54,101 nt of DNA from Prorocentrum cordatum (Eukaryota). Below the pieces are notes generated by a model. That model was given only the letters and a program-made list of their open reading frames with translations, did no database searches and was not told where the DNA came from. The stretch's first letter is position 1; each line of letters opens with the position of its first letter. The translations under genes and the position numbers were made by a program. Shown here in pieces: positions 7,644-40,339 of the stretch. The stretch lies in NCBI GenBank assembly GCA_963575745.1, contig CAUYUJ010000263.1, forward strand, positions 62,001 through 116,101, in the 5' to 3' direction.

Positions 7644-7668
7644 CTTGAGCCAAAGTGCAGCGTTACGG
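7644..7668 (-). other. Relict dinoflagellate spliced-leader-like sequence directly before an ATG
   Basis: Minus strand reads CCGTAACGCTGCACTTTGGCTCAAG|ATG versus SL DCCGTAGCCATTTTGGCTCAAG. The 3' 11 nt are exact; the 5' part needs a gap. Confidence 0.5.
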
Positions 7669-11252: not shown

Positions 11253-11421
11253 TCGGAGGGCACCAACTATACACCAACACCGATCCTGGGCCCAGGATCA
11301 CCCTGGGCCCAGGATCGGTGTATATGCCTTCTTGCGCAGGGCAGGAGGGCGTATACACCGATCCTGGGCCCAGGGTGATCCTGGCCAGGATCGGTGTTGG
11401 TGTATAGTTGGTGCCTTCCTA
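11253..11421. mobile_element. Palindromic MITE, copy 1 (ggcaccaactata...tatagttggtgcc)
   Basis: Near-perfect foldback, nearly identical to 12406-12573. The right-hand TSD is not retained. Confidence 0.8.
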
Positions 11422-12405: not shown

Positions 12406-12573
12406 TCGGAGGGCACCAACTATGCACCAACACCGATCCTGGCCCAGGATCACCCCGGGCCCAGGATCGGTGTCTATGCCTTCCTGCGCAAGGCAGGAGG
12501 GCGTATACACCGATCCTGGGCCCAGGGTGATCCTGGCCAGGATCGGTGCTGGTGTATAGTTGGTGCCTTCCTA
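12406..12573. mobile_element. Palindromic MITE, copy 2, with 5-bp TSD ATCTC
   Basis: ATCTC at 12401-12405 and 12574-12578; long TIRs. Confidence 0.85.
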
Positions 12574-12964: not shown

Positions 12965-13159
12965 TGCGGGCAATACTTCTGTCCATATCCACTGCCGTAT
13001 GGAGTTTCGGGCTCCCTTCCCAAGAAGCCCGAGGCGCACCGGATATGGATAAATTTGCCCCCCAGAGGCTCGATGTTCATATCCAGTGCGCCTCGGTCTT
13101 GTGGCGCCGCTTCAAAAAAGTCCAAGAGGCACTGGATATGGACATGAATATTGCCCGCA
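12965..13159. mobile_element. MITE with TIR tgcgggcaata... and 5-bp TSD TAGGG
   Basis: TAGGG at 12960-12964 and 13160-13164. Imperfect TIRs of about 30 bp, with internal catatcca/tggatatg inverted motifs. Confidence 0.85.
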
Positions 13160-15799: not shown

Positions 15800-18700
15800 C
15801 TTGGCAGGATTCGGCCGAAAAACTTTGACGACAGCCAAGAATTCTGAGCGATGCTTCCGAGGAATACTGCGACGCGTCTTTGCAAGCCATTGCGGGGGCC
15901 ACTGCAAAAGTAATATCTCACAAACAAGGTCACCGAAAGCATTTCGAGCACGGCTCGGATCCCCTTCGGCCACACTGGTGTGACTGAGAACTCGTTCCGT
16001 GGTGAAATCCGAGTGTGGTAGACGAGGAGGGCTAATGAGGAAATTTTGCCAACTGGGGTTGTTCCGCCTGTCCACGGGCAAACTCTGCGTTCGGGGAGAA
16101 AGGGCGCACCTCGTGCGATAGGCCTTTCGGCCGGATGTGCGCCTGGAGGTATGTGAGAGGGAGGCCCCGACCCTCCACCGTGACCCCGATGTCCGGGGGC
16201 CAGAGCATACGCATAGCACGTTCAAGGCAACTCTCATAACAAAAAGAACATGCTAAATACGAGACTGACGTCGACGTATAAGATGCCTTGGATGAGCTCT
16301 GCTGTCGAAAACCCCGGGCATGCAAGACCGATGGAGGCACTATACCCTGCTTCTGTGTGTAAGCGATGGACGTTCTCTCCAAGGTCGCCCACGGTGGCGG
16401 GCTCAGACATGCTGCCACCCATGGGCCACCCCGCTTACGGCAGAATATGTCTTTGCCCACCATGAAATGGATGTCCTTGGAAGCGAACTTGAGGGCCCTA
16501 CGAATATCAGCGAATGTGTATACATCATGATCAGAGGGAACGTGATCTCCACTACGACATAAGAAACCTTTTGCCTTCGAACCCCGTTTGACTGCCACTG
16601 CTGTTTTTCCATGCCGTTTGAAGGCCCGGTCCAGGAACAACGAACACCGACGAACACCACGATCGACGTCAGCATCTTGAAACAATTGACTGCCATCGCA
16701 TTTAACCCAAGATATACACGAGTTTGGTTTTCCACAAGGGCACCGAAACGTGAAGGCCACTGGTGCGAAGACGACGGACACGCTCCGCCAACATTTTCGG
16801 TAGGAGACGAGGTTCCCAGAGCGACCAAGAACTATCTCCAGAATGCTGCTTGGCCAAACTTAGCGCGCGGGCAGCCTTCCAGAGGAACCTGCGCTGAGTC
16901 TTCTTGCAAGTGGAGGCGATCTCTCTGTGGTGTGCATGCGCGTGTGTACGCTTGAGTGCGCCACTCGTGCGATCAAGGCACTTGCCTTTGATGGTAAGGT
17001 ACGCATGCGGAAGATGATGTACGCGTGTGATTTCGGGCCTCCGGTGCGTTTTGGGGATGTATATGTCGACCAGTGTTTGAAGACGCCGGGCAACTTCTTT
17101 AGCACGTAGGTGCGGGCAGTGCTCGTAGTGTACGGGGTCTTCGCAAAAACACTCCCATAGTTTCCAACCGCAGCAAATACGGGGTATGCATACACGTCTG
17201 CGCGGGTCCTTATCCTCGTATATGGCATGCGTGCAGCTCCAGACCAGCAACCCAAAGTACATGAAATGCGTACCTGTCGCCCCAATGCTCGAACAACCAA
17301 TGTGCCTCGACGCGCCCCGGCAGTTGCAGGTACGAATGGTGCGAGGCAAGTTGCCGGCAAACATCGAAGAAGACGAAGGAGAGAGGCAGGGTGGCAGGAA
17401 CATCCCAGTGTTGATCCAGCCAAACAACGGCATGTGACAGGAAATCTTGGCAGCGAGGGGCATGTAGCAGATATTGACAAACTGTGTGGGAGAAATCTCA
17501 ACATACTTGCCGCTGTTGCGGAATATGATCAGAAACTTCAGGAGGTCGCACACTCAATATTTCTGTTTGTGCACGCAGGTAGAGAGCAACATTGGGAGAA
17601 CGCATTTTTTACATACCCAATGTATGTAGTGGTTACGCGTGCGACGACAATGTTGTACGAACGCGTGTGAGGTATCCGGCAATCTGAACAGTTTGATGCT
17701 CGACGGGAGAAGGTCCCCCGACGACATGAATCGTTCAATCTTTCTTCTTGCGATGACAGCACGTTCATACGTGAGGCGTGAGCAGAGAATCCAGACAGAT
17801 AGGAGATATTCGACCAACCAAACATGACGCCATGCGGCATGATAGCGCAGGCGGGTGTGTCGCTCCCCCAAGTGCGTTGCCAGCCAGAGCTCGTAGCCTC
17901 TGCGGTAGAGACGCTGCACCACTTCATCTCTGGAAAGATCGTAGCGCTGACGAGCCCAACCCAGCAAAGCAGCAAACGAGGTATCAGTAGACGGGAGACG
18001 GCTCCGCATCGCCTGATCTTCCCGTAGACGGCATACCAAATTGAGTCGAGACTCGTCTGCGAGAGTGGGACGCTTCCGGAACCTCGGGAACGGACGTGGT
18101 TTCGGACCCTGCCCTCGCTGAGTTGGTCCTGCTCCGCATTGGGTTGTGGGCCGCAGTACTCTAATTGCCAAGGACTCGTACTCGGCAGTTCTCGCCTCAG
18201 TGCTGAAGACCATGGGTGCGAGAACGAACGACCAGGACGAAGATGAACGCCAGGAACGATACCGCGGGCGTCCAGCTTGGTTTCCTTTCTCGCTGAAGGT
18301 GGCCTGGAAGTGTTTCCAAGAACGACCCTGCAGCCCAGAGCGCACGGTGCGACTGCGCGGACGAGTGCACTTGGCACGCCCCACATACCAGGCTCCAGAT
18401 TCCCAGGAGAACGCTGAGTAGCATAATGCTGCATGTGGTTGGGAGGCAGGGTCCCAGACCAGACGAACCATTTCAGTAAGATGCCGAGGCCAAGACTCCC
18501 CTCGAAAGTCAGATCGTAGAACGCACATTTGGAGATGAGGCGAAGCACATCGAAGAAGTACTCGCGTCCAGTGTTTTCGCTCGTGCTGTTTTGAAATCCG
18601 TTCGCATGCGATAGGGATGCCGGTAAAGACCAGGAGGGACAGAACAGCTTGTGATTCACTTTTGTGTTGCTGCCACGATGCGAGGGTGCACCTAATATTA

Positions 18701-19830: not shown

Positions 19831-20193
19831 CCCCCCCCCCCTTCTCGCCAACGACCCACCCGTGACCCACCGACGACCCGCCAGCGGCGACCCACCCAGC
19901 GACGCTGACAGCGGTGGTTCTATGAAGTATTGGCGCCTGTCGGCGGAGGACGATGAGGCGGAGGACGAGGAGGAGGAGGAGGAGGAGGACTTGGAGGAAG
20001 AAGAGGATGAGCAGGAGGAGGAAAGAGGAAGAGGAGGAGGAGGACGACGAAAAGGAAAATAACGAGGACGATGACGAGGAGGAGAAGGAGGATGAGGAGG
20101 AGGAGGAGGAGGAGGAGGAGGAGGACCCCCAACCAAGGCAGAATGGCATTCTCCCTAGGGAGGGGTTACGATTTCCTCAGGACCCTCCCCCCG

Positions 20194-20226
<33 letters not shown>

Positions 20227-20339
20227 TGCCCCCCCTGCCCAGGACCCCTCCCCATGCAGACCCCCCCCCTCATACGCCAAAAGGGTCGGCGGATTTTGGT
20301 CGCGAGCTTTCGTCGACCAACATTGCAGTTGAGAGCGAC

Positions 20340-20349
20340 TTGGCTCAAG
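20340..20349 (+). other. Partial SL relict upstream of the Ub-HET-LRR gene
   Basis: TTGGCTCAAG equals the last 10 nt of the dinoflagellate SL. The match is short and could be chance. Confidence 0.35.
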
Positions 20350-20574
20350 CAGCGCCCTCGGCGAAGCCTCACGCGACCCCACGCCCCGGCGTGCACCGTG
20401 ATCCTCTCGCAGGGCGCCCAGCCCGCTCGCCGCGCACCGGCGACGGCCCCACAGGTGCTGAAGAATGAGCTCCCGCAGGTCGACGGCCTGAAGGAGGAGG
20501 GCGGCAGCTTGGCGGAGGCTGCGGTGCCACGCCTCTGCGGCTCGCCAGAGCGCAGGCTGCACACCCTGGCTGGC

Positions 20575-22690
20575 ATGTGCGGCGGCGGGCTGGGGGAGGG
20601 GACGCCGCCTGAGATGCCGTCCCGCTCCGCCGCCTCGGCCGAGGTCAGGATCGAGGCCAGCGCCCACGTGGCGCAGACGGACAGGACCTTCCAGCAGCCT
20701 CTCCAGATCTTCGTCAAGACCCTGGCTGGAGAGACGATCACGTTGCACAAAGTGATGCCGACAGAGCGCATTGAAAGTGTGAAGGCGCTCATTCGGCACA
20801 AGGAAGGCATTCCTTGCGAGATGCAGCGTCTCGTCTACAGTGGAAGGCAGCTTGAAGATGGACGTGCACTTGGCGACTACAACATCACGACAGAGTCCAC
20901 GCTGTTCGTAACTTCCGTTCTGGTTGGAGGTGTGCAGACCGGGGGCGCCAGCGCGTCTTCCGAGAGCGGGGAGACGGGCGCACGGGCGGCTTCCCCGCGC
21001 ACGTCCGCCGTCAGCTCGTTCGCGGGATTGTGCTCCTGCCTCCGAGGCCGCCAGCTGGGAACGGTTGGCGTCGCCGAGGCGCAGGCTCCCGCCGAGGACG
21101 CCAACGAGGAGCCCATCGACCCCAGCCAGTTCACGGACGCCGCGAGCCTGTTCGACGCGCTGGCGTGCACCGTGCAGGGCCTGCACCCCGTGCGCCTGGT
21201 CCGCATGTCGTGGCTGCTGCAGCAGCGCGGCACGGTGCTGAAGCGGCGCCAGGATCGAGGCCTCCTAGACGGGGTCGGAGCAGATGGGGTCGGAGGATCG
21301 CGCCGCATCGCCGATGCATCGCCGATGCGGCTCGATGCGGAGCCCGATTTTCTTCACGCGGACGTCGCCGATGCATCGCCGACGTCGACGTTGCATCGCC
21401 AGTGCATCGCCAGTGCATCGCCGATGCATCGCCGATGTATCGCCGATGCGGCGCGATCCTCCGACCCCATCTACTCCGAGCCCATCTAGGAGGCCTCTAC
21501 AGGAGCTGCCCGAGGAGGCGTTCGTACCTGCAGGGGAGCTCCGGCAAGTCTGGGAAGCTGGCGGGCGAGGAGGCCGAGACAAGGTGGCACCCATCATCAC
21601 CATCTCCTTCTGCTGGGATACACGAGACCACCCCGACCCCACGGGGAAACAGCTGGAGTTGGTGATCGATACTCTGGAGAAGGAGCGCCACAAGTACGCC
21701 GCACTCAGGTTGGGCTTCCCGGGGTTCACCGAGATGGGGATCTTCTGGGACTGGCCCTCGCTGCTGCAGGGTGACCCTGACAAGGCCGAGGCAGCGAAGA
21801 AAGCGGCACTGCAGGAGGGTAAAAGCGACAAAGAGGCCGAGGACGCCGCGGACAAGGCCAAGCGCACGCCCGCCGAAAAAGCTGCGTTCAAGCATGCGCT
21901 CCACAAGACCATGGATCTGTGGTATGCCCATCAGGGCACCACAGTCTTCCTCCTGACGCAGCACCCCCAGGACCGAGGCAGCACGCGCGAGTGCGGGTAC
22001 GACCAGTCGGGCTGGACGACGTACGAGCGGTGCTCCACCGAGCAGATCAAGAATGTGCATCGGCATGTGGCGAAATGGAGCGCCGTGGCCGACCTGGGGC
22101 AGGGAGCGGGAGCCAGGGCGGCGGGCAGGAAGTGGCCGGTGGGCCCCGACGAGTTCGACCGGCTCATCGAGGGCAAGACCTTCACGAATGGCTCGGACCG
22201 CGAGACGGTGAAGCAGATCTTCCGCCGGATGAGCCGCGTGCAATTGGGCAGCGTGACGGAGCTGGCCTTCGACGGGATGAAAGGACCCCTGAGCCCCGAC
22301 GAGGCGGCGGGCCTCGGCGGCTGCCTGCGCCTGTGCGCCCGCCTGGAGAGGCTGAACATGAGCGATTGCGAGATCGGCCCCGCGGGCGGCGAGGCACTTG
22401 CGGCTGCGTTGCCCTCGCTGACCGCCCTGCAACACCTGGTCCTGGACAACAATGCCCTGGGCGAGGTGGGCGGCCAGGCCATTGCGGCCGTGCTGCCCTC
22501 GCTGCCCGCCTTGAGGGTGCTGATTTTGCAGGGCAACGACATCGGCGAGGGGGTGAAGGCCATTGGCGCAGTGCTGCCCTCGATGCCCGCCCTGACGGAG
22601 CTGTATCTGGGCGTCAACAACATCGGCGACGGGGCGAAGGCGGAGCTGCGGGCCGCGTGCGAGGCGCGCCGCGTGCGTCTGAATATCTGA
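20575..22690 (+). CDS. Ubiquitin-like domain + HET/TIR-like domain + RI-type leucine-rich-repeat protein; exons 20575-21252 and 21503-22690 (621 aa if this ATG is used)
   Basis: Ubiquitin fold [14 protein letters not shown]...[34 protein letters not shown]...LVGG (20701-20931). HET-like motifs [35 protein letters not shown]. About 28-aa LRRs from ~22250. The true start is uncertain; candidate acceptors at ~20454 and ~20478 suggest possible upstream exons. Confidence 0.85.
21253..21502 (+). mobile_element. Introner-like element forming a 250-nt phase-0 GA-AG intron (TIR element 21255-21499, TSD CAGGA)
   Basis: About 70-bp TIRs. CAGGA at 21250-21254 and 21500-21504. Splicing cag|GA...tacAG|gag restores [11 protein letters not shown]. 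Confidence 0.85.
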
Positions 22691-25499
22691 GCCGGTGACG
22701 GCGGCCGAGGGCCGCCGGGGGCCACGCGTTTTGTTTCTCTTCTCCTCCCCCCCCTCCTGGCAAATCCTGCACCAACGTTGTTGGAGCCCCGCGCACGTGC
22801 CCCCCCGCCAAGAGGCTCGGCACTGAACCGGTTGCCTCGTATGTGAGCTTCTCAGGGACTCATTCTTTCCTCGCGCATCATCCCTCATGCATTTCGCTCC
22901 CCACGCGGCCAACCTTAATACCGACTGAGCCACTCAGCCTCAGCGACAGAAGGAGGATGCAGGAGGAGAAAGGGGAGGGGAAGAAGACGGGGGAATGAGG
23001 CAGGAAGGAGGAGGGAGGAGGAGGAACAGCAGGAGGAGAAGGAAAGAAGAGAGAAGAAGAAGGAGGAGGAAGGAAGAGCGAGGACAGAGGAGGAGGAGGA
23101 GGAGGAGGAGGAGGAGGAGGACGACGACGAAACATAGTTCCCCCTCTCTGCTTTCTGTTTCGGCTCTCCTCCTGGTCCTCCTCTCTTTCGCTCCATCCTT
23201 CTCCTGTGTTCTCATTGCTCTCCTGTCTTCTCCTTTTCTGTTCCTCCGCTTTTCGCGGTTCCTCCTATTCCTTTTTAGTTGTTCCTTCCTCTTGTTGCGT
23301 CTTTGCTGCCATTGTTGCTGCTATGATGCCTGATGCCCCTCTTCCTCTTGCCTCTCCTCCATGTTCTACCTTTGAGGGAGCTTCGATTCTCCCGAACGGC
23401 CTGTTATCCAGCAGAGGAGTCAGTGGAGTCCCGAGTCCTGAGTCCAGGGAGAGCCCGGAGGACTCCAGAGTCCGGGGGTCCAGGAGTTCGGAGCCCAGAA
23501 GGGGCCCAGACCCCGAGGAGTTCAGTCCAGGAGCTCGGAGTCCGGGGGGGGGGGGGGAGGGATGACGGAGAGGAGCCGAGAGCCCAGGATTGCAGGAATG
23601 TTTGCCATCGCTCACTGCCTGGCCTGCCCGCTTCTGCTCCAGGGCTAGGCGACTAGGCGGGAGCGGCAGCGGCGCCAGCGGCGCCCGCGTAGAGAATGTC
23701 GTAGGCCGCCTGCACCCTGTCGTTTTTCAACGACTGATCCGTGAGCAGCTTCTCCAGGTCGTTCATTGCTCGACGGCGCTGCAACAAGACCAGCTTCTTG
23801 AACCCCACCGTCTTTGGTCCGCTCGGCAGGCACGAAGCTGCCGCGAACCACCCAGGCGGCACATACATAATCTCGCCTGCCTTGATCGTCGTGACGAAGC
23901 AGTTCACCTTCCCTGAAATGAACTCCTTGGCCTTGTCAGCCTCGATGCTTTTCAAGAGCGTCGTCGCCCGCTCGAGGAATGTCGTGCCCTGGACGTGTGG
24001 AACTTGATCCATGAGCTGGCCGCCGTGGAAGTAGACCACCTTCATGCTGCCCTCAACGATGTACTTCACAGAGCCTAAAAGCTCCGCCTCGAAACTCATG
24101 TCCACGTAATTAGGTCGGGAGGTAGCCGATGAACCAGACCCGCTCCGTGGCCGCCTGCACCACGGGGTGCTTCGTGATGTCCGCACGCTGCGCCAACGGC
24201 GCCAGCTTCTCGAAGATCGACACGACTCGCGCGAGGCCATGCGATTCCTGCACGGGCGCCGAAGCTTTGTCCCCCCTCTGGCCCGCCTGAGCTGGGAACT
24301 TCACTTTGTACCTGTCGAGGCCCGCTTTGATCTCTGGCGCCGCGCAGGCTGCAGCACCGGCGGAGCTCGCCAGCAGCTTGAAGGGGATGTCCAGCATCTC
24401 TTTCGACTCCGAGCCCTCAAGCTGTTTCTCGAAAGCCGCCTCATCATGGTAAGTTTTGACCGCCTCACAACCAAGGCTAGACAAGTCGATCGCAAAGACG
24501 CCAGACGAAAGACTCCTTGGGGAGCTCCAAACTGCATCCGTAAATCAAGCATCTTCCCTCCTCACTCTCTTCTCCATTGCCCTCTTGGGGCTGAGGTTTG
24601 AAGAGAGCGGCGAGGGATAGGCTTGATTGGCGGGTGCAGTTGGGAATTCCGAGCTCCTCAGCGAAGTGATCTGCTTTCTCAAGCTCGCCGAGGCCGCTGA
24701 AGCTGCGGCCAGCTGATCCTCCCTGGCCTTGCTCTCCTGCTCCATCTGCTTGGCCGCCGCCTTCCTTGAGACCGTGCTGTGGGATGTCTTCGCAACCTTG
24801 GCAATGTCGACGATGGCCTTGCGGAGCTGCTCAAGGTTGATCTTGAAGTCCTCGATCTTCGCTTCGGTGCCCTCGATCTCCTTAGCGGTGGTCGCAGTAC
24901 GGATCTGCTGTGAGAGCTCCATCACGCGTGCCATACGAACGATCTGGTCCCTGTCGTCAACGGGCAACAGGACTGCTGCATGAAGTTTCAAGTGGAGTTA
25001 GTGGTCGCGATACTTGCCAAGGTCCAACAAGTGCTCAGGGAACTCGATGTTGTCCTCTGTCTTCCCCTCCTTGATGCATTCTTCCTTGAACGCTTGCTTG
25101 TCCTTGGTGAACAGCTCGTCCATCCCCAGGTCGGAGTCAGTGACGGTGCTGCTGCTCTCATCGTAGTCGAACTTCTTGTCGAGGACGAGGCTGCCAAGCA
25201 AAATCCGTTCCCGCAAGAGCGACATCTGCTCATTGTCTGCGCTGGGGCAAGTGGCGCTTGTCTTGCCAGCTGCTGCCAAAGCTTTGAACAGCTTGGTCTC
25301 CTCTTGACCCAAAGCCTTCTTCTGCGTCTCTGCGACCGTGAGCCTGGTGATGCCGACGTCGAAGCGGGCCTGGCCAACTGCAGCCTGCCCGCGGCCCCCG
25401 GCGAGCTTCGCCTTTGGCGCCGACCCATCACTTCCTTGAGATGCCTCACCAGTGCTGGTCTTGTCCGTTGCTGCTTGTGGTCTGACCCCGTGCGTCATC

Positions 25500-37006: not shown

Positions 37007-37028
37007 GTCGTAGCCGTTTTGGCTCGAG
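37007..37028 (+). other. SL relict upstream of the plus-strand gene
   Basis: GTCGTAGCCGTTTTGGCTCGAG matches the dinoflagellate SL at 19/22 positions. Confidence 0.75.
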
Positions 37029-37114
37029 CTATTTCTGAGGTCAGATGGCAGCCAATCTGAGGTGCATTCGCCGAACCAGGCAATAGCCGCCTCATCTTCA
37101 GAGGCAGTCGTGGG

Positions 37115-40339
<3,225 letters not shown>

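Follow-up and report, generated by a model that had tools for sequence, protein, structure and literature searches.

How can a gene stay open and expressed when a transposable element has landed in one of its coding exons and shifted the reading frame? This question is raised by a locus of the dinoflagellate Prorocentrum cordatum, which lies in a stretch of 54,101 nucleotides (nt) of GenBank assembly GCA_963575745.1 (contig CAUYUJ010000263.1, positions 62,001 to 116,101 of the forward strand) that we call the window and whose own numbering is used throughout. There, a 245-bp element with terminal inverted repeats (TIRs), flanked by two copies of the target site duplication (TSD) CAGGA, interrupts the coding sequence (CDS) of a gene for a ubiquitin-like and leucine-rich repeat (LRR) protein. 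A preliminary description, made from the letters alone, took the insertion for an introner, a transposon turned intron, whose TSD supplies both splice sites of a GA-AG intron. Introner elements account for 2.4% of P. cordatum introns, and 10-11% of genes in free-living dinoflagellates contain them (Dougan et al., Genome Biol 2023, PMC10666404). Here we report that assembled contigs from public sequencing runs skip exactly 250 nt at this place, that their removal restores a conserved frame, and that the sequence is probably excised by the spliceosome with both splice signals drawn from the TSD.

A TIR element within a coding exon

Read directly from the letters, the element spans 21255-21499 and is bounded by direct copies of CAGGA at 21250-21254 and 21500-21504 (plus strand; 5/5 letters matching). 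Its inverted arms, each of 72 nt, occupy 21257-21328 and 21426-21497, are 92% complementary and each contain a 15-nt duplication, which in the left arm is in tandem at 21267-21295. The outermost letters of the element pair as well (T...A), the second position being the sole mismatch there. The core, an 11-nt tandem repeat with the unit TCGCCGATGCA in 7.9 copies, covers 21365-21449 and overlaps the right arm. A 24-mer from the terminal arm, searched with up to three mismatches, is found in the window only at the two arms, and any match at all appeared in 0/100 shuffled sequences. The ends of the interrupting sequence thus bear the hallmarks of a transposon. Like a miniature inverted-repeat transposable element (MITE), it is short, TIR-bounded, TSD-flanked and devoid of a transposase open reading frame (ORF), or indeed of any ORF of its own. 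Too short and too repetitive to encode anything, it belongs to the MITE-like, non-autonomous TIR transposons, with a target duplication of 5 bp. An assembly artefact was rejected, as it would not yield matched TIRs together with a TSD.

As RNA, 21240-21515 is predicted to form a single long hairpin with an energy of -191 kcal/mol; 200 shuffled sequences gave -119 +/- 5.5 kcal/mol (z = -13.1; 0/200 shuffles as good). The stem of this hairpin begins at intron position +5, 3 nt past the presumed donor, and finishes 4 nt before the acceptor. Two Rfam mir-33-like matches, on both strands of the core and scoring 23 bits against a gathering threshold of 50, were read as chance hairpins and set aside.

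The frames of the host gene break within the element. The frame-1 ORF 20011..21489 enters it and ends there at the TAG at 21487-21489, and the frame-2 ORF 21269..22690 leaves it and continues to the stop at 22688-22690. Cutting out 250 nt (3 x 83 + 1), equal to the element plus one TSD length, joins both frames in phase 0 into a CDS of 1866 nt and 621 codons, from the ATG at 20575 to the stop at 22688-22690. On the plus strand, the gene then consists of coding exon 1 (20575..21252; 226 codons, placed by its ATG and a frame check), an intron of 250 nt (21253..21502; GA...AG, phase 0, delimited by the contig joints described below) and coding exon 2 (21503..22690; 395 codons and the TGA at 22688-22690). 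Exon 1 closes after the CAG of the left TSD copy and the intron opens with its GA; the AG of the right copy closes the intron and exon 2 opens with GA(G). A search of Pfam placed a ubiquitin-like domain at about 20707-20910 of exon 1 (PF00240, E = 4.5e-19, residues 30-97 of the translated segment 20620-21252), and exon 2 holds a conserved family domain followed by LRRs at about 22343-22630 (LRR_6, E = 1.8e-11, plus LRR_4). The G+C content of the window is about 61%; that of the P. cordatum genome is given as 59.7% (Dougan et al., PMC10666404).

A query with exon 2 retrieved 88 relatives, 15 of which were taken into an alignment. The best relative, P0001 (source jgi), is derived from a transcript on a 2290-nt contig and has 621 amino acids (aa), just as many as the spliced product, from which it differs at 14 residues; the next ones are NCBI-named P. 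cordatum proteins, 63-75% identical. In 15/15 aligned homologues the sequence is collinear and ungapped across the Q|E junction that the removal creates. Residues R219, R220 and Q221 are nearly invariant among them, as are columns on both sides of the junction. A conserved domain is therefore interrupted by the element, whose exact excision brings a conserved motif back. The element, its TSD, the shift of frame and the peptide restored by removing 21253-21502 had all been read in this way beforehand, and each is borne out by the arms, the frames and the homologues. A search for near-identical public gene models returned none among proteins of 217-692 aa (best NCBI match 67-75%) or of 693-2000 aa (best 71%), proteins below 217 aa not having been searched. 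With P0001 as query, a search for related loci gave one locus, whose relative is 44% identical.

The split domain had been called HET-like. That a conserved region spans the junction stands; the label is not supported, as neither the domain of the window, nor P0001, nor three homologues match Pfam HET (PF06985) at E <= 10, and 0/38 family members do so at E <= 1. An AF2 model of the domain (pLDDT 70.2) found no match in Foldseek at E <= 0.001. With VIA-align the best Z score was 4.9, and protein domains named TIR reached Z 3.4-4.6 (100-109 residues, root-mean-square deviation 3.9-4.6) amid unrelated rows; in the ESM Atlas the best named match, a MORN cluster at 0.75, fell under the trust level.

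The ubiquitin-like N-terminal part (20575-21110) was seen, among the aligned relatives, only at this locus and in P0001, and the aligned P. cordatum paralogues mostly start with MGCCMASR in its place. The ubiquitin-like/LRR gene looks like a fusion, judging by the alignment. Purine-rich (GAG/GGA)n arrays, similar to one another and in direct orientation, also flank the gene, at 19950-20125, 20183-20235 and 22950-23125, and a run of 53 C lies upstream; they may delimit a unit that was retroposed or duplicated.

Exact skipping of 250 nt in public sequencing runs

When public runs were searched for words of 20600-22700, 24 of them were listed. The top 14, from 6 studies, each contain 0.86-0.87 of the sampled words and none of the 24 contains more; by simple arithmetic, a share of 0.865 is predicted if only the words touching 21253-21502 are absent. 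The shares hint that it is exactly the intron that is absent, with contigs compared for only four of these runs.

The contigs of these four runs (X1, X3, X15 and X17) were aligned to 20300-22990. One contig each in X1, X3 and X15, which are three runs from three studies, joins 21249 to 21500, skipping exactly 250 nt. At the joint five letters fit either side, so that the cut can be placed anywhere within the TSD, including 21252/21503, the junction at which the preliminary description had suggested looking for transcripts. The joining contigs, of depth 24.6 (X1), 30.3 (X3) and 74.2 (X15), extend from the joint by 46-48 letters on one side and by 272-1430 on the other. Over 868+1444 = 2312 letters X1 shows 0 differences from the window, and X3 likewise shows 0 over 875+1476 = 2351 letters, the kind of library being not on record for either. 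X15 is on record as polyA RNA-seq and comes from a strain with 31 listed differences from the window. Among the contigs listed for the four runs, none bridges a boundary between exon and element; those of X17 do not cover the junction. Parts of the element are at zero depth in X1 and X3, and the flanks beyond 20352-22951 are bare, neither of which is evidence by itself. The expected junction is thus found in three of the four runs, in material whose DNA and RNA are not matched by strain.

From 20352 to about 22950 the contigs follow the DNA of the window collinearly, the element excepted. A 5' end at 20352 is common to X1, X3 and X15, the X17 contig starting at 20343, and the 3' ends fall at 22897, 22929 and, in X15, 22951. 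These shared ends, which delimit a span of 20352..22951 on the plus strand, look faintly transcript-like, no DNA run having been compared. The strain of X15 differs from the window at 24 places in the CDS; 11 of these differences are synonymous (4 of them in exon 2) and 13 are non-synonymous (3 of them in exon 2). The 621-codon frame is intact in the window and in this diverged strain, and the host gene is therefore expressed and not decayed. The ORF is undisrupted on both sides of the insertion, as had been claimed, and a silent, decaying gene, which would have spoken against the proposal, is not what is seen.

Some further features of these contigs deserve mention. Within the 5' untranslated region, the X15 contig skips 20440-20471 (32 nt, ends GC..CT) and those of X1 and X3 do not; this is most simply an indel between strains. 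Depth is several-fold higher at 21190-21243 and 20684-20714, where many unitigs of 37-41 nt end in all runs. Both segments also occur in transcripts of paralogues, and 20684-20714 also in a highly expressed transcript sharing the ubiquitin-like part. The N-terminal part holds 10/13 of the non-synonymous differences between strains. Seventeen of the 31 X15 differences, which lie between 20507 and 22877, are A>G or G>A, and strain divergence and RNA editing are alike possible.

Splice signals and competing explanations

The ambiguity at the joint leaves six possible registers for the cut, and only cag|GA...AG|gag has an AG acceptor; CA..TA, AG..AC, GG..CA, AT..GG and TC..GA were rejected, none of them ending in AG. 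CAGGA fits the pattern NAGGH, with a GH donor in the left copy and an AG acceptor in the right one, and the exon letters after the 3' cut are GA, matching the 'GH' context of dinoflagellate 3' splice sites. With a skip that falls at the TSD, the earlier assignment of the donor to the left copy and the acceptor to the right one is supported. Among the gene's own 5-mers, 276/1861 (14.8%) would permit any G[TCA]..AG cut with the ends of this element. Since so few do, a spliceable target such as this one is about seven times more expected if the splice sites matter.

We hold it likely that the transposon made this intron, that both of its splice signals come from the TSD, and that the spliceosome removes it as a GA-AG intron. 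A 245-bp miniature cut-and-paste DNA transposon would have inserted into a coding exon of the expressed ubiquitin-like/LRR gene and duplicated the 5-bp target CAGGA, which has the form N-AG-G-H. Right behind CAG, the left copy would then give a G-A donor, and the AG of the right copy, with a G after it, would act as the acceptor. Dinoflagellate spliceosomes use GT, GC and GA donors, and here the spliceosome would excise 21253-21502 as a phase-0 intron and leave the message scarless. The long hairpin may help by drawing the two sites within a few nucleotides of each other.

Several points weigh against this account. DNA and RNA from one strain are paired in no dataset; X1 and X3 are libraries of unrecorded kind, X15 represents a diverged strain whose genome may be without the element, and X17 gives no cover at the junction. 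GA is regarded as a suboptimal donor (Roy et al., bioRxiv 10.1101/2020.10.14.339549). The hairpin would hide most of the intron, any branch site included, from the spliceosome.

The same hairpin leads to another explanation, in which the stem and the flanking direct repeat, not the dinucleotides, would set the cut (element plus one TSD) and GA...AG would be coincidental or permissive. The 72-bp stem (-191 kcal/mol, z = -13) does put the TSD copies 3-4 nt from its base, 14.8% of the gene's targets would look canonical by chance, and introners of Amoebophrya are described as joining exon ends without conserved dinucleotides (Farhat et al. 2021, PMC7789003). Here, though, a legitimate dinoflagellate donor and acceptor stand in register, with a G past the AG, and Polarella classes with a TSD of the same form were read as ordinary recruitment of splice sites (Roy et al.). 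We consider removal guided by structure unlikely; if it were true, it would point to free-living dinoflagellates having a structure-guided route of splicing that operates alongside the spliceosome or by way of it.

Two further explanations dispense with RNA removal in the form seen, and both appear less probable still. The joined contigs could represent an empty DNA site in other cells or strains rather than spliced RNA, and the lack of a same-strain DNA run, the unrecorded kind of X1 and X3 and the derivation of X15 and P0001 from a diverged strain all leave room for such a polymorphism. Yet X1 and X3 lack the element while being identical to the window over 2312 and 2351 letters, and the filled site is in none of the 24 listed runs (top share 0.87). 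As a weak hint, the X1 and X3 contigs start at 20352 like those of the RNA run X15 and end at 22897-22929, close to its 22951. In the assembled strain itself, moreover, an intact frame of 395 codons past a frameshifting insertion needs removal at the level of RNA. We thus regard an insertion polymorphism as improbable. Direct repeats around a strong hairpin are also the classic setting for template switching, and a reverse transcriptase could have jumped from one CAGGA copy to the other while the messenger RNA keeps the element. This arrangement suits such an artefact, and all the evidence presented here is based on cDNA. Against it, no bridging form other than the joined one is seen in the three runs, which come from three studies, parts of the element are at zero depth in X1 and X3, such artefacts are usually a minority, and the constraint on exon 2 between strains (4 synonymous and 3 non-synonymous differences) needs translation beyond the insertion. 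It is the least probable of the explanations, and very improbable in our judgment. Excision by the spliceosome at TSD-derived sites accordingly stays our preferred reading.

Origin of the intron and its place among introners

The 10-mer TTGGCTCAAG, with which the dinoflagellate spliced leader ends, occurs as an exact match at 20340..20349 on the plus strand, 226 nt ahead of the ATG; the shared contig start at 20352 follows 3 nt after this motif. Two occurrences were counted in the window where 0.19 would be expected, and 1/100 shuffled sequences reached two occurrences. Relict spliced leaders (DinoSL) of at least 9 exact nt, no more than 500 bp upstream of an ORF, have been used to recognize retrogenes (Song et al. 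2017, PMC5585692), and by this measure the present locus qualifies. The relict suggests that the gene is an otherwise intronless retrogene, that is, a recycled cDNA. Such a copy would be born intronless, and the intron, if the gene is a retrogene, would therefore be a later, polarised gain. Two other relicts resembling the spliced leader, each matching in 13/15 letters, lie at 7644-7658 (minus strand; this one includes the exact 10-mer) and at 37014-37028 (plus strand), the latter followed after 33 nt by the coding-like ORF 37061-37735 (G+C content at third codon positions, GC3, 0.79). Several genes of the window may be retrogenes, to judge from these motifs.

Other copies of the element exist, and it probably belongs to a multi-copy family: its arm sequence appears in other contexts in the contigs of X1, X3, X15 and X17, in short unitigs (43-48 nt) and loose ends. 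One contig carries a variant terminus before 21281, and another matches to 21496 and then diverges. No second copy was found in the window by sensitive BLAST (next match E = 0.036 over 28 nt), and a 20-mer common to both arms matched at 0 loci in the metagenome contigs and at 0 in the viral contigs of JGI. Unrelated elements with TIRs and TSDs are present elsewhere in the window, at 12965-13159 (195 bp, arms of about 47 nt, TSD TAGGG), at 12406-12573 (168 bp, TSD ATCTC, apparently nested or duplicated, with a related left end at 11253) and at 18097-18461 (365 bp, TSD GACG); none of the window's other TIR elements with a TSD lies in a convincing coding context. Twelve coding-like ORFs elsewhere in the window gave no Pfam match in 10 cases and matches below threshold only in the other 2.

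The closest published parallel is found in Polarella glacialis, in a preprint of which a journal version reportedly appeared in Curr Biol in 2023. Fifteen classes of introners are distinguished there (Roy et al., bioRxiv 10.1101/2020.10.14.339549). Class 12 has a 5-nt TSD (NAGGH or NNAGG) that provides both splice sites, and classes 13 and 14 recruit their sites in the same manner from a 4-nt TSD, AGGH. Recruitment from the TSD predicts a phase-0 bias, and introns gained recently show an excess of GA donors (Roy et al.). Both GA donors and GH after the 3' site count as normal in dinoflagellates (Roy et al.; review PMC11453091). The element described here resembles these classes in being an exonic DNA transposon whose N-AG-G-H TSD gives both sites, in phase 0, in GH after the 3' site and in a GA donor, the type enriched in recent gains. 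It differs in its host, a Prorocentrum of about 61% G+C in this window, the comparison being one of descriptions and not of class sequences. Class 12 introners, moreover, mostly have a GC donor completed by the initial C of the element (Roy et al.), whereas the first letter of the present element is T and its intron has a GA donor. The mechanism is already described, and by this comparison the locus would be a clean new example that fits the account of class 12 feature by feature. The preliminary phrase of an introner "caught in place" is apt insofar as the element is seen removed to the base; the principle is not new, the NAGGH route being set out by Roy et al.

Other systems share part of the design. 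Introner-like elements of Symbiodiniaceae also have inverted and short direct repeats, a 5' site derived from the TSD and frequent GA or GC donors, whereas their TSD has 4 nt and the element's own end serves as 3' site (Roy et al.); here both sites lie in the TSD. The P. cordatum introners of Dougan et al. likewise show inverted repeats and direct repeats of 3-5 nt at the intron ends. That study is a pattern count on gene models, and its excerpted text describes neither a family, nor a rule leading from TSD to splice site, nor a single insertion. In Amoebophrya A25 and A120 (Farhat et al. 2021, PMC7789003) introners are MITE-like, with border direct repeats of 3-5 nt and a hairpin that joins the exons; their inverted repeats have 8-20 nt and their ends lack conserved dinucleotides, unlike the 72-nt arms and readable GA-AG found here. 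In Aureococcus anophagefferens and Micromonas pusilla a DNA transposon also makes the intron and the TSD gives part of the signal, though there the element carries one splice site and the boundaries are canonical (Huff, Zilberman & Roy 2016, as summarised by Roy et al.).

What the locus offers is a single case in which a transposon insertion would turn into an intron immediately and leave no scar, the entire splice signal coming from the duplication of its target. If the host gene is indeed a retrogene, the direction of change, a gain, would be unusually clear. The case adds a Prorocentrum example to the rules drawn from Polarella and Symbiodinium and leaves those rules unchanged. It is also of value for annotation, exonic GA-AG introners being easily mistaken for frameshifts, and it provides a defined test case for what sets the cut, the hairpin or the dinucleotides.

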